From positions 1 to 50,750 of IMG/VR virus record IMGVR_UViG_3300006654_000150: 50,750 nt of DNA; one strand, 5' to 3'. Source of the stretch: a virus. A program made the translations under genes and the position numbers. Shown in pieces: positions 28,199 through 31,488 of the stretch. Every line of letters starts with the position of its first letter. The first letter of the stretch is position 1. The notes beneath the pieces are model-generated. The model saw only the letters and a list, made by a program, of their open reading frames with translations, was not told the DNA's origin and ran no database searches.

Positions 28199-28382
28199 TT
28201 GTCACCTCCACAATCGTCACAGGCAGCCGCCAGGGCTCGAATGTCTCAATGTCCCGGCGTATCTGGTGTTCGCTTTCTCCCTGGCGGATCTCTCGGCGGG
28301 CGAGGAAGGTCGGGGAGTCGATGAAGAAGCTCTTAGCTTCCTTATGATCTACTGTGAGATTGTCGGGCAATGAGGCATTCAT
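28191..28382 (-). CDS. Hypothetical protein
   Basis: Start reassigned to ATG 28382 (MNASLPDN...), giving an ATGA overlap with the methylase stop. Confidence 0.5.
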   Translation of the reverse strand: MNASLPDNLTVDHKEAKSFFIDSPTFLARREIRQGESEHQIRRDIETFEPWRLPVTIVEVTSD

Positions 28383-30001
28383 GATTGACGCTCCGCTTTC
28401 AGGATAACCACGTCCACCGACGCACCACGGAACTGGTTTTCGTAGACTCGGGACCAAGTGAGGCTCATGCCAGGCAATACGTCTTTGCCCTTGGCGCTGG
28501 ACGGTAGGATCGCTACCATCCGCCCTCCCGGAGTAAGAACGGAGTAGGCAGCCTCTACGTGTGCCTGCCACCTACCTTGAGAAAATGGCGGGTTGCAAAT
28601 GACCCTGTTAAAGCGCCTATCCGTGCGGCTTGCCCACACCAAGAAGTCTGCTCGCTCCACATGATGACCTTTTGCCTCCAGCACTGAGCAGTGCAGCGGG
28701 CTAACTTCAACGCAGCACAGACTTTTCCCGCCGCCCATGTGGTCGGCAAGGTTGCCGGTGCCAGCTGAAGGCTCCAGACAGTCGTGCTCCGGGCCAATCT
28801 CTGCCATCTCCACCGCGTCCCGAGCGATACTCTCAGGCGTCGGGTAAAACTGATGGCTCTTATGGTCCGGAATGCAACCGCTGCACACAATTTCCTTGAT
28901 GATCGCGCCCGGCTCGTAGTCGAATTCAAACCACGCATAGGCGTTATGGCTCATCTTGACGCCGCCAAGCATTTCCAGAACCTTCTCTGTCTCGGCCACT
29001 ACGTGCTTGTCGTGCCCCGAGTGAGTGCCCAAGCGCAGCTTTCTCAGATTCAGCTTCGGTCGAGTAACAGGCCTGCCGTTCTCGTTGAGCTCTGGCTCGT
29101 CGTAAATGGGCTCGATGTCGTGAAGCGCATTCAGTACAGCGAACGGCAATGGTCTCTCCATCAGAGTGAATTCTTTCACCTTGCGCTTAGGCTTCTGACG
29201 GAACCGTGACGGAATGGCGGTCGGGTACAGGTGGTGCAGGACCTCATTCAGACGCCAGGCAATGTCCGGGTGAATCTCAAGGTGCGCGTTGCCGTTCAGG
29301 TAGCAGCGAATTCGCATCGCTCCGCCGTCTACTGTGACCCACTCCCCACGATGATTCTCCCGGGCAATCTCAACAACCCGATTACTGGCATTCCAGTCCG
29401 GCTCGTCCCGTCCCATAAACTTGGCAATCACTTGACGCAGGTCGTTGATGTGTCCGGTCTGCCCCCTTGAGTAGCTGCCCCAGTCGTTGGTGACACCGGA
29501 TAGAATCATGCGCTTGCCGAATCCTTCCGGCTGGTTGGTGATGTGAGTCTTGCTCAGGGCGCGGAATATGCCGTCTACCTTCTCGGCCAGAAAGTCCATG
29601 CGAGCGGCCAGCATTTCTGCCAGGGTGGCCCGCACCGTGGATTCCTCGAAGTCCGGCGTTTCCATCTTCTGGATACTGTCAAACCATTCTTCACGGCGCT
29701 TGGATGGCATGAAGTCGAGAACGTCGGTCAGTTCCAGCGATTCGCGCCAGTACCGGGCATTAAGTGCAGCGACACCCTGTTCCAGTTTGAAGCTGGGAGT
29801 TGAGCCCGCCCGGTGATCCTTGCGCCGTGCAGCGTCCTCGAAATAGCCTACAACCGACTTAAAGTCATCGCCGGACAGATACTCAACAACCCGCTCCATG
29901 CGTTGACGCTCGGCGCGGTACCGGCCCACTAATCCATCGACCATATCGGTGTTGGCTGGCGCAAAGAACTGTTCGTCGTTTACTTGCAGCGCTGCGTTCA
30001 C
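28379..30001 (-). CDS. N6-adenine DNA methyltransferase with a large N-terminal DUF4942-like domain
   Basis: The C-terminal 180 aa carry FYPTP, EPSAGTG (SAM motif I) and NPPF (motif IV). No restriction partner is present. Confidence 0.8.
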   Translation of the reverse strand: MNAALQVNDEQFFAPANTDMVDGLVGRYRAERQRMERVVEYLSGDDFKSVVGYFEDAARRKDHRAGSTPSFKLEQGVAALNARYWRESLELTDVLDFMPSKRREEWFDSIQKMETPDFEESTVRATLAEMLAARMDFLAEKVDGIFRALSKTHITNQPEGFGKRMILSGVTNDWGSYSRGQTGHINDLRQVIAKFMGRDEPDWNASNRVVEIARENHRGEWVTVDGGAMRIRCYLNGNAHLEIHPDIAWRLNEVLHHLYPTAIPSRFRQKPKRKVKEFTLMERPLPFAVLNALHDIEPIYDEPELNENGRPVTRPKLNLRKLRLGTHSGHDKHVVAETEKVLEMLGGVKMSHNAYAWFEFDYEPGAIIKEIVCSGCIPDHKSHQFYPTPESIARDAVEMAEIGPEHDCLEPSAGTGNLADHMGGGKSLCCVEVSPLHCSVLEAKGHHVERADFLVWASRTDRRFNRVICNPPFSQGRWQAHVEAAYSVLTPGGRMVAILPSSAKGKDVLPGMSLTWSRVYENQFRGASVDVVILKAERQS

Positions 30002-30032: not shown

Positions 30033-30359
30033 TCATAGCGATTCCACCTCATCCCCGATACGAAGCACCTCAACGCCTACTGACCGGAGCGCTTCCTTGC
30101 ATGGTTCGCAGGCATAGCTGTGGCCTTCCAGTTCAGCCCGGATGCCTTTTCGGCCATGCAGATTCATCACAGCCACCTGCTCGGCATGGCCTGCCTGTTG
30201 GCAGACTTCCTGGCACAAGCGATACCCCTCTCCGGTCTGGTAGCCGCGAGCATCGCGCGGGCAGATCGATTGAGGATTGCGGCAGTAGTTCTCTCCGGTG
30301 ACCACATGGCCGTTAGAGGCTTCGATGTGGCAGATCACTCTGTGCTTTGCGCAGGTCAT
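30033..30359 (-). CDS. CMP/dCMP-type zinc deaminase fold protein
   Basis: GHAEQVAV plus YACEPCKEAL (HAE ... CxxC/PC zinc ligands). 108 aa, shorter than typical dCMP deaminases. Confidence 0.65.
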   Translation of the reverse strand: MTCAKHRVICHIEASNGHVVTGENYCRNPQSICPRDARGYQTGEGYRLCQEVCQQAGHAEQVAVMNLHGRKGIRAELEGHSYACEPCKEALRSVGVEVLRIGDEVESL

Positions 30360-31276
30360 GCGGCGTCACTCCCTTCCAGCCAGTTCGGTGAATGCTGCTG
30401 CTGCCACCAGAGAAACTTGTCCGTTTCCAATGGCTTTAAGTCGGTCCACCCGATAGGCCAGCCCATTAACCACTCGACCCACTGCGGGTTCAGCGCCCCA
30501 CCATCCGAGGCCATCACCGCATGATCCAGCCTGTCGTTCTCCCGGGACTTGCCAGACTTGCGAGTCAGGGATGCAGGGCTGCTGCCTTTGTGCATGGAGG
30601 CGACTGGCGTTGGCCAGTTCTTTACTGCTGTTGCCAGTCCGTCCCCGCTCGTCTTGCTCGCGCCCTTGCGGTTGTAGTTGTCGCATACTGTAGGTGTCGG
30701 CCATGTAACCACTGCTGATTCCAGGCTGGGACTTCGCCTTGCGCGCTCCGACGGGCAGTCTCCCCGCACTGATGCCTTTGGCGTAGGCCACAATCCAGAT
30801 TCTGTCCCGCTGGTGCGGAGCGCCAACATCGGCTGCACCCAGCACTCCCCATTGAGCATCAAACCCCAGCGCGGCCAGGTCTCCGAGTACAAGTCCCAAT
30901 CCCCGAGAAGTGAGAACTGGGGAGTTCTCCACGTAGACGTATCGGGGTCGTACTTCGCCAATGATTCGAGCGAACTCAGACCAAAGGCCGGATCTTGCAC
31001 CGCTGATTCCTTCGCCTCGCCCGGCTGCAGATATGTCCTGGCAGGGAAACCCTCCAGAAATGACATCAACACGGCCTCGCCATGCTGTTCCGTCAAAAGT
31101 CGTAACGTCGGACCAAATTGGGAAAGGCGCGAGGCATCCATCATTTTGTCGTTGCGCCAGAACCCCTGCGGCGTAGGCATCACGCTCCACTGCGCAGATT
31201 GTTCGCCATCCGAGTAAGTGGCCTCCGAGGATTCCGCCTCCGGCTCCGGCGAACAGGGCAAGTTCACGGAGTCCAT
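30356..31276 (-). CDS. Second ORF in the +1 frame, overlapping the whole dcm gene (possible overprinted gene or frameshift isoform)
   Basis: 306 codons from the first ATG. Three WPTP repeats, and it ends LNPQWVEWLMGWPIGWTDL. Its TGA forms an ATGA with the deaminase start. See the first finding. Confidence 0.4.
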   Translation of the reverse strand: MDSVNLPCSPEPEAESSEATYSDGEQSAQWSVMPTPQGFWRNDKMMDASRLSQFGPTLRLLTEQHGEAVLMSFLEGFPARTYLQPGEAKESAVQDPAFGLSSLESLAKYDPDTSTWRTPQFSLLGDWDLYSETWPRWGLMLNGECWVQPMLALRTSGTESGLWPTPKASVRGDCPSERARRSPSLESAVVTWPTPTVCDNYNRKGASKTSGDGLATAVKNWPTPVASMHKGSSPASLTRKSGKSRENDRLDHAVMASDGGALNPQWVEWLMGWPIGWTDLKPLETDKFLWWQQQHSPNWLEGSDAA

Positions 31277-31298
31277 CAGTGCTTTGCTGAATAGCCAT
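30366..31298 (-). CDS. dcm: DNA (cytosine-5)-methyltransferase
   Basis: Motifs I FAGAGGG, IV GGFPCQDIS, VI ENSP, VIII QRDRIW, X RVDRLKAIGNGQV. Start reassigned to ATG 31298. Confidence 0.9.
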   Translation of the reverse strand: MAIQQSTDGLRELALFAGAGGGILGGHLLGWRTICAVERDAYAAGVLAQRQNDGCLAPFPIWSDVTTFDGTAWRGRVDVISGGFPCQDISAAGRGEGISGARSGLWSEFARIIGEVRPRYVYVENSPVLTSRGLGLVLGDLAALGFDAQWGVLGAADVGAPHQRDRIWIVAYAKGISAGRLPVGARKAKSQPGISSGYMADTYSMRQLQPQGREQDERGRTGNSSKELANASRLHAQRQQPCIPDSQVWQVPGERQAGSCGDGLGWWGAEPAVGRVVNGLAYRVDRLKAIGNGQVSLVAAAAFTELAGRE

Positions 31299-31299
31299 G

Positions 31300-31488
31300 T
31301 CACACCCCACCCCCAAACCCAGACCAAGCCTCATTCCGTGGCCTATCCTCAAACCACGAATCCCGGCTCTTTGGCTCAAGTGCCATCTGATAGCGAGCCC
31401 TAGTGCAGGCGAATACTTCTGTCTCAGTGCGATGGAATCCGTGCTCTGAGATTGGTAGGCGGCGTTGGCAGCCGGTGCACTGGTTCAT
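31300..31488 (-). CDS. Small Cys-containing protein
   Basis: 62 aa. ATGA overlap upstream, and its stop is 1 nt before the dcm ATG. N-terminal CTGC. Confidence 0.5.
   Translation of the reverse strand: MNQCTGCQRRLPISEHGFHRTETEVFACTRARYQMALEPKSRDSWFEDRPRNEAWSGFGGGV

Follow-up and report, generated by a model that had tools for sequence, protein, structure and literature searches.

A viral cytosine-5 DNA methyltransferase locus with two nearly fully overlapping reading frames, probably specifying a two-subunit enzyme

The window considered here, i.e., the whole stretch of 50,750 nucleotides (nt) that was analysed (positions 1 to 50,750 of the IMG/VR virus record IMGVR_UViG_3300006654_000150), contains a dcm-like gene for a DNA (cytosine-5) methyltransferase (C5-methyltransferase) whose bases also hold, on the same strand, a second open reading frame (ORF) of practically the same length. 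This raises the question whether one segment of DNA specifies two proteins here and what the second of them would contribute. The original prediction, made from the sequence alone, considered both ORFs, termed A and B in the following, to be real-looking proteins, and offered an overprinted or dual-coding gene, a frameshift-generated isoform, or corruption by an indel as explanations. It is the dual-coding explanation that is supported by the comparative evidence, namely by the openness of frame B in relatives, the depletion of stop codons, the pattern of selection, and a conserved ATG. Beyond that prediction, it is very probable that the locus encodes a two-subunit C5-methyltransferase from two nearly fully overlapping frames of one mRNA; the two products would be complementary halves of one enzyme, with M.EcoHK31I as biochemical precedent.

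The two frames and their motifs

Both ORFs are located on the minus strand. ORF A, the putative alpha-like subunit, extends over 30366..31298 (310 amino acids (aa)), with its ATG at 31298 and its stop codon at 30366-30368. Frame B, which is +1 relative to A, is free of stops for 324 codons of the window sequence, from 31327 to the TGA at 30356-30358, and offers TTG 31327, GTG 31303, and ATG 31276 as candidate starts. Most likely, ORF B, the putative beta-like subunit, would start at GTG 31303, behind a Shine-Dalgarno-like G-rich tract that is read from the sequence just upstream of both starts (GGGGGTGGGG, 31305..31314, minus strand). With this start it comprises 315 aa (30356..31303) and extends beyond A on either side, by 5 nt upstream of the ATG and by 10 nt past the stop; the overlap spans nearly the full length of both ORFs (~940 bases, ~310 codons per frame). 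The ATG at 31276, previously given as the first ATG of B, is present as an internal codon, but the likely start is the GTG, at which position close relatives have ATG.

The motif content predicted for the two ORFs, including the +1 register of B, its more than 300 open codons, its three WPTP repeats, and its motif IX-like end, was found by direct translation. A carries motif I (FAGAGGG, 31233..31253), motif IV (GGFPCQDIS, 31029..31055), motif VI (ENSP, 30918..30929), and motif VIII (QRDRIW, 30795..30812), all of which are expected of a C5-methyltransferase, and, in addition, motif X (RVDRLKAIGNGQV, 30414..30452). The WPTP repeats of B are located at 30779..30790, 30692..30703, and 30605..30616, and its motif IX-like segment LNPQWVEWLMGWPIGWTDL is located at 30437..30493, where A reads EPAVGRVVNGLAYRVD. 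Translation of both frames confirms the claim that the nucleotides of B's motif IX also serve the motif X region of A, motif X overlapping the end of B's motif IX as well as B's LKPLETDKF. A second pair on identical bases is formed by motif VIII of A, whose bases read SGTESG in B, and the ESGLWPTP of B. The central segment (30504..30776) is unconstrained, disordered filler in A (~aa 175-265) and would be the target-recognition region in B, with WPTP repeats 2 and 3.

As had been cautioned, the motifs of B are in part an automatic echo of A's conserved codons. This is correct for B residues ~1-100, where GGFPCQDIS indeed turns into EGFPARTY in the +1 frame, and for the first WPTP, which sits directly downstream of the motif VIII bases and partly echoes QRDRIWIVA; repeats 2 and 3 are not echoes. 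The rough count by which third-position G+C did not favour A in the centre also holds, albeit not for the centre alone: across the whole gene the value is 0.51 for A and 0.70 for B, compared to 0.65-0.70 for neighbouring ORFs. The base composition reflects the double coding load, and gene callers often pick B because of the higher G+C at its third positions. The gene caller chose the B-frame start on another contig (Logan, 6,982 nt; P0001, 315 aa), and on what appears to be the window's own metagenomic contig frame A was taken, with a longer N-terminus (P0121, 322 aa, 100% identical to A).

Conservation and selection along the frames

Three distant phage homologues, those of Acinetobacter phage ABMM1, Pseudomonas phage phPA-G, and Salmonella phage S9-5, have both frames open end to end; the record of phPA-G annotates frame B, not A. 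Among viral contigs, B is open alongside A in ~68 of 75 loci, B extending over 230-360 codons and the third frame over ~25. In species-representative bacterial genomes, where loci were located by a B profile, a co-extensive A bearing motifs I and IV accompanies B in 68 of 80 cases; the median length is 297 codons for B and 41 for the third frame, and motif X is found in A at 71 of the 80 loci. The bacterial loci cover at least 10 phyla, including the low-G+C Acinetobacter, Leptospira, and Sulfuricurvum. Whether frame B stays open in homologues, a check proposed together with the original prediction, is thereby answered in the affirmative.

The number of stop codons to be expected by chance was derived by shuffling the synonymous codons of A within each gene. 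Per locus, the +1 frame would be expected to contain 4.7 stops and contains 0.7, mostly B's own terminator, so that stops are ~7-fold depleted; the frame is open in ~90% of loci. The +2 frame is not depleted (12.1 expected, 14.5 observed). Frame B of the window has no stop where 5.6 are expected (P<0.0005), and within the first 150 codons, summed over 63 loci, 2 stops were observed versus 147.5 expected. Since A-synonymous site differences reach 0.3-0.5 between the compared sequence pairs, there was ample opportunity for stops to arise in B.

Selection was followed by OLGenie-style counts on 236 sequence pairs, i.e., by pairwise statistics in which the tree is ignored. The B ratio, pNN/pNS, relates changes altering both proteins to those altering A only, and the A ratio, pNN/pSN, relates them to those altering B only; a ratio <1 means constraint on that frame. 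For A, the ratio is 0.23, 0.26, and 0.34 over B residues 1-60, 61-110, and 111-165, respectively, reaches 0.98 (0.90-1.06) in the centre (residues 166-250), and is 0.69 (0.49-0.92) at the C-end (residues 251-295), which describes strong constraint over the N-half, a neutral centre, and renewed constraint at the C-end. The corresponding values for B are 1.02 (0.64-1.58), 0.77 (0.48-1.26), 0.56 (0.36-0.84), 0.81 (0.74-0.86), and 0.51 (0.35-0.72). The proposed per-frame test of constraint was, accordingly, positive for B from residue 111 onward and not significant for residues 1-110. Amino-acid identities follow the same course, with 0.6-0.96 for A and 0.33-0.64 for B in the N-half, 0.07-0.27 for A and 0.11-0.56 for B in the centre, where B is higher in every window with data, and 0.44-0.70 for both at the C-end. 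As far as can be judged from sequence comparison, both frames are shown to be maintained by selection as coding sequence, and selection is shown to be complementary, acting on A over motifs I-VIII as well as X, and on B over the centre and the C-terminus.

In a minority of loci, one of the frames is broken. In L031 and L075, B ends after ~130-140 codons; in L039/L040, L099, L140, L147, L156, and L171, B is intact and A ends after ~170-210 codons. Such loci could have arisen by the decay of a copy or by errors in assembly, or they could be additional split forms.

The B family is large, with 20,689 clusters at 50% identity when E<=1e-3 is demanded and 9,883 at 1e-10. At least 7954 full-length homologues of B (45-77% identity) were found, none with a Pfam domain, and where the source gives a name among the top matches, it is 'hypothetical protein'. 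The A family has at least 8000 homologues at 90% identity, named DNA cytosine methyltransferase. In the listed phage matches (231 records in all), the relatives of B lie under genes annotated DNA methyltransferase. Annotation pipelines keep one of the two frames, e.g., A in the case of PGAP, and in most cases the second frame carries no annotation or is termed "hypothetical"; in Pseudomonas sp. S25, both A and B occur in public annotations, under different names. Only 4 distant matches, annotated as single DNA cytosine methyltransferase, are present in complete E. coli genomes. A description of the dual coding of this family was not found in the literature searched.

Relation to two-chain and single-chain methyltransferases

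A matches Pfam PF00145 at 1.8e-31, over aa 13-180 only, and phrog_363 at 3e-67; against TIGR00675 it scores 80.9 bits, which is under the cut-off of 100.65. The AlphaFold2 model of A, calculated from a 106-sequence alignment, is confident at aa 11-177 (pLDDT 78-95 over most of this part) and at the terminal helix, aa 291-310 (pLDDT ~72). In between, aa 178-290 have a pLDDT <50 and nearly no secondary structure, save a single 5-residue helix. Foldseek aligns the model with M.HhaI and M.HaeIII at E ~1e-12 over only ~173 columns, which is approximately half of those enzymes and presumably their large domain. This domain is closed by motif X, of which D285, G291, N292, Q294, and V295 are invariant in 106 A homologues. 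A folded target-recognition domain and a motif IX (a QGFP-like motif) were not found between motifs VIII and X of A. From the half-enzyme match and the disordered aa 178-290, it follows that A is a catalytic domain devoid of a folded recognition domain and of motif IX.

For B, the search of profile libraries that had been recommended for both translations gave no Pfam or NCBIfam match, but phrog_1008, 'DNA methyltransferase', was hit at 3.5e-27. The lack of a Pfam match is uninformative, as Pfam also misses the C-terminal half of gp5 of Gordonia phage MelBins and all of gp33 of Streptomyces phage Vash. By hhalign with a 111-sequence B profile, B 157-288 corresponds to MelBins gp5 334-467, which comprises LLPTP repeats and motif IX (E=5e-5). 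Within this alignment, LNPQWVEWLMGWPIGWT of B is placed on the FAEWMMMLPAGHVT segment of MelBins gp5; it is also aligned with Vash gp33 (E=2.8e-4). The aligned motif IX segment of these two proteins reads FAEWMM..P.G.VT. As the C-terminal half of B matches repeats and motif IX of single-chain relatives, it would represent the recognition region and motif IX of the enzyme family. Only in combination do A and B provide one complete set of motifs.

The two-chain enzyme to which this arrangement comes closest is M.EcoHK31I of E. coli HK31, described by Lee, Kam, and Shaw in 1995. Its alpha chain is said to have 309 aa, against 310 aa of A, and its nested beta chain reportedly has 176 aa. In M.EcoHK31I and in the window alike, motif IX is supplied by a second chain that is encoded in an alternative frame of the first gene, this frame being kept by selection in the present family. 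It has been reported that the alpha gene of M.EcoHK31I contains, in a different frame, the beta chain with its motif IX (PMC2836561), and that no methylation was obtained with an alpha gene from which the start codon of beta and two internal Met codons had been silently removed (PMC2836561; PMC3404938); both chains are needed there. The predicted recognition domain of M.EcoHK31I is placed in alpha by the literature. In the window, in contrast, the recognition region would be part of B and the matching segment of A is neutral and disordered. Further differences are that beta of M.EcoHK31I is a nested ORF, whereas the 315-aa B is co-extensive with A, and that the two starts of the window are 5 nt apart at a shared ribosome-binding site. 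EcoHK31I belongs to a restriction-modification system; beside the window gene no restriction gene was noticed, although none was specifically searched for.

By analogy, the following scenario is proposed. A would be the alpha-like chain, consisting of the catalytic large domain with a ~100-residue unconstrained, disordered linker in the place where a normal enzyme has its target-recognition domain. B would be the beta-like chain, in which ~100-160 residues overprinted on the motif I-VIII codons would be followed by the WPTP-repeat recognition region and motif IX. A single ribosome-binding site would serve the start codons of both, which are 4-5 nt from each other, and the polypeptides would associate into an active enzyme as the chains of M.EcoHK31I do.

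Single-chain relatives with all motifs in one frame are known from actinophages, namely MelBins gp5 (495 aa) and gp55 of Mycobacterium phage Philonius (550 aa). The order of their motifs is I, IV, VI, VIII, three to four LLPTP repeats, F(A/P)EWMM..P.G.VT, and motif X, (L)(K/R)(A/I)IGNGV. They resemble the window locus in motif content and order, in the (L/W)PTP repeats, in F/V-EW-(L/M)-M-G-x-P-x-G-W/H and in LKAIGNG, and in the N-terminal half even at the DNA level; they differ in being one polypeptide of ~500-550 aa read in one frame. Over motifs VI-VIII and the low-complexity linker of these genes runs a +1 ORF of 141-170 aa (L088 1336-1848 in Philonius, L085 1415-1840 in MelBins) that contains SETWPTSGMTRNG and two or three more LPTP repeats, ILPTPRATDGTKGGPNQRGSSGDLMLPSAV among them. 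This ORF may be left over from the two-frame layout, or it may yield a second product that works. A tblastn search with B residues 83-175 led to the +1 frame of the motif IV-VIII region of Philonius gp55; this match is partly an echo of A codons and is not counted as evidence.

Split enzymes show another division. In phage Vash, gp32 contains motifs I-VIII and gp33 the LLPTP repeats, IX, and X. Like M.AquI, this is a two-chain C5-methyltransferase split after motif VIII, with the recognition region and IX on the second chain. In both cases the genes are adjacent and have few bases in common (32 nt in Vash), and the second chain bears X, too; in the window, the genes overlap completely and motif X stays on A. 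Within the family itself, motif X has moved in P0009, P0017 (locus L086), P0110 (locus L087), and L072, which, alone among the relatives examined, place it on B: A ends at AEPGVG, and B runs through a ~120-residue insert into RVDRLKALGNGQV. In an alignment with the window, the upstream copy is seen to have kept only the B reading (IX) and the downstream copy only the A reading (X). In L052, IX and X are in one frame, and A is truncated after motif VIII. Since motif X moves onto B in these variants and the enzyme of Vash is split, the modules would be able to work in trans.

Several observations were made beside this on the same variants. The insert between IX and X contains, in the third frame, an ORF for an HNH-like endonuclease (L086 2833-3279, L072 2708-3070), with Pfam HNH scores of 18.9 and 20.9 bits at a cut-off of 21.4; frame B is open through this insert for ~120 codons, so that this stretch is itself read in two frames. 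The insert looks as if a mobile endonuclease had invaded the IX/X overlap and the overlapped segment had been duplicated. Just upstream of the methyltransferase, L072 has a hybrid ORF (1215-1862), which opens in the reading of A (MNELALFAG) and goes on in that of B (LVAEYSAEGCSGGTPSAP...SRLSRFGMTCA); it is apparently left over from a second copy that was frameshifted. Long B-family proteins were also considered as A-B fusions: in P0262 and P0268, the recognition region of a B protein is enlarged by inserts, and the others have no PF00145 match.

Shorter second frames occur in other sub-families. Paenibacillus phages HB10c2 and Tadhana have a nested +1 ORF of 234 aa, both ORFs being annotated in Tadhana (gp54/gp55), and Escherichia phage K1ind3 combines a 309-aa methylase (ORF30) with a 265-aa +1 ORF29 named 'putative Mte8-like protein' (L091 605-1402). 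The Tadhana and K1ind3 pairs share with the window the +1 ORF inside a C5-methyltransferase gene, WxTP repeats, and a motif IX-like LNPxW.E.LMG.P..W, and both ORFs were deposited as genes; they belong to different sub-families and differ in the limits of the second ORF, whose start is internal (~codon 30-70 of A) and whose end precedes that of A. In a related genome paper on Paenibacillus phages (PMC6070908), the overlap is not discussed. The label 'Mte8-like' may point to an earlier unpublished recognition of the second frame; the origin of the name Mte8 could not be traced in the literature.

It is improbable that B is a genuine overprinted protein of a function unrelated to methylation, which merely shares its DNA with dcm. 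One could argue for such a function from the lack of a Pfam or NCBIfam family and from the peptide MSWLFSQAL of B, which is conserved on its own and has no counterpart in the single-chain enzymes examined. However, the constrained half of B consists of WPTP repeats and motif IX, i.e., of exactly what A lacks and what stands in frame in single-chain relatives, natural variants carry motif X on B, and the genes overlying B relatives are annotated as DNA methyltransferase.

The remaining alternatives concern the way in which B is made and have to be judged from the start region. In the major class of loci, the start context is xTG-AAT-GAG-yTG-G. The start codons of A vary (ATG 61, GTG 34, TTG 15, TTA 6, CTG or CTC 2); B has an invariant ATG, which in the major class is located 4 nt downstream of A's start, just after an in-frame TGA. 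The Asn2 codon of A that holds this ATG is AAT in 52 of 52 non-redundant major-class loci, whereas AAC is favoured elsewhere in A (323 vs 186). In 94 of 118 loci, a GGAG/GAGG/AGGA core ends 3-5 nt ahead of A's start and thus 7-9 nt ahead of B's ATG. The variant class to which the window belongs is marked by a duplication of 9 codons at the start. Its upstream copy encodes the N-terminal peptide of B, M-T-WLFSKAL-M (31276..31303, minus strand), and, in A, MAIQQS within the non-conserved extension MAIQQSTDG; its downstream copy encodes ELALFAGAGGG with motif I in A and NLPCSPEPE in B. The WLFS(Q/K)AL of B survives B-synonymous changes between the classes (CTC/CTA, TTT/TTC, TCG/AGC, GCG/GCA, CTG/TTA), and the A reading of the same bases is wholly different (NELALFAGA vs DMAIQQS). 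The N-terminal peptide of B is therefore selected in its own right; these first ~13 residues (MSWLFSQAL motif) are the sole part of residues 1-110 showing independent selection. The duplication would have resolved a conflict between the frames in the variant class.

A programmed +1 ribosomal frameshift, by which the catalytic N-half of A would be fused to the recognition half of B to give a single-chain isoform, has very little probability. Such a fusion would restore the order of motifs I-VIII, recognition domain, and IX, plus X in the extended variants. In the compact form, however, VIII and the first WPTP as well as IX and X share their bases, so that a fusion would be without X, and the segment from motif VIII to the repeats has no conserved homopolymer run, heptamer, or other slippery site. 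The sole conserved heptamers, TTTCCCA and GGGTTTC, are situated in the PFPIW and GGFPCQ codons of the N-half and are of the wrong type and in the wrong place. Nor would a frameshift need the invariant ATG of B, 150 stop-free N-terminal codons, or a conserved N-terminal peptide. The frameshift-generated isoform of the original prediction is thus not borne out.

Equally hard to sustain is the idea that B is made only as its C-terminal part from an internal start, like the nested beta chain of M.EcoHK31I, with the open N-terminal part being incidental. It would agree with the insignificant amino-acid constraint on B aa 1-110 and with the shorter nested B-like ORFs, of 234 aa in the Paenibacillus phages and of 265 aa in phage K1ind3, but not with the near-absence of stops from the first 150 codons, the invariant ATG at 7-9 nt from the Shine-Dalgarno core, or the preservation of the N-terminal peptide through synonymous changes in the variant class; moreover, among 111 aligned B sequences there is no invariant or near-invariant internal Met. 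Finally, the view that frame B is open by chance or as an echo in G+C-rich DNA, or through sequencing indels, is refuted by the comparative data and hardly deserves consideration: although some parts of B, such as EGFPARTY and the first GLW, do echo conserved codons of A, no such openness is seen in the +2 frame while +1 stops are rare, B is better conserved than A in the centre, and the two-frame layout recurs in >100 independent loci of phages and at least 10 bacterial phyla, low-G+C hosts included, which also excludes the indel corruption once proposed.

There are also points that weigh against a two-subunit enzyme. The translation of B, the association of A and B, and the need for both chains are things we infer from conservation and precedent, and M.EcoHK31I is likened to the window by its published description. 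The loci share ancestry, so that openness and stop counts are not independent trials. By hhalign, B is tied to a single-chain enzyme with modest support (probability 67%, E=5e-5), AlphaFold2 gave a poor model for B on its own (pLDDT 58.5, pTM 0.26), and the 111-sequence B profile gave only chance matches to RapA (E ~0.3) among PDB sequences. Finally, amino-acid constraint beyond that of A is not significant for B residues 1-110, for which the intervals include 1.

As for the neighbourhood, the TGA of B forms, as predicted, an ATGA junction (30356..30359, minus strand) with the ATG of the downstream ORF 30033..30359, the stop of A being located 7 nt before it. This 108-aa ORF, likewise on the minus strand, has HAE...PCxxC-like residues and no Pfam match at E<=0.01; its deaminase label is unverified. 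The next gene but one downstream (28379-30001, minus strand) codes for a protein of 540 aa that has DUF4942 (5e-27) and, in its C-terminal part, a methyltransferase region with an NPPF motif; it represents a second DNA methyltransferase in the gene row, probably of the N6-adenine or N4 type.

Meaning for the methyltransferase family

With the second frame of dcm-like genes, a large family of proteins without Pfam or NCBIfam assignment is explained. A long and widespread same-strand overlap, whose products are apparently halves of one enzyme, would make a clean natural system for the co-evolution of two proteins on one DNA; the variants with the 9-codon duplication and those split by the HNH insert show how conflict between frames gets resolved.

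A more far-reaching view, which must be called speculative and is rather doubtful, is that the whole clade of (L/W)PTP-repeat C5-methyltransferases is built on an ancient same-strand overlap, the recognition domain being read from the +1 frame of the catalytic gene. This clade counts tens of thousands of genes, which are spread over phages and over prophages from at least 10 phyla. If the view were true, even the 'single-chain' actinophage enzymes would retain a working +1 ORF. B residues 1-100/160 would be a new overprinted module that could dock on A or set the A:B ratio, rather than a mere stop-free leader, and the textbook placement of the recognition domain of M.EcoHK31I in alpha would be wrong.

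C5-methyltransferases are still reviewed as monomers, with M.AquI and M.EcoHK31I listed as the only known two-chain exceptions (PMC3404938). If the family works as proposed, two-chain enzymes would be common among phage-borne methyltransferases. Cloning of the annotated ORF A alone would then be expected to yield an inactive or non-specific enzyme, which matters for methylome work, phage engineering, and anti-restriction studies.

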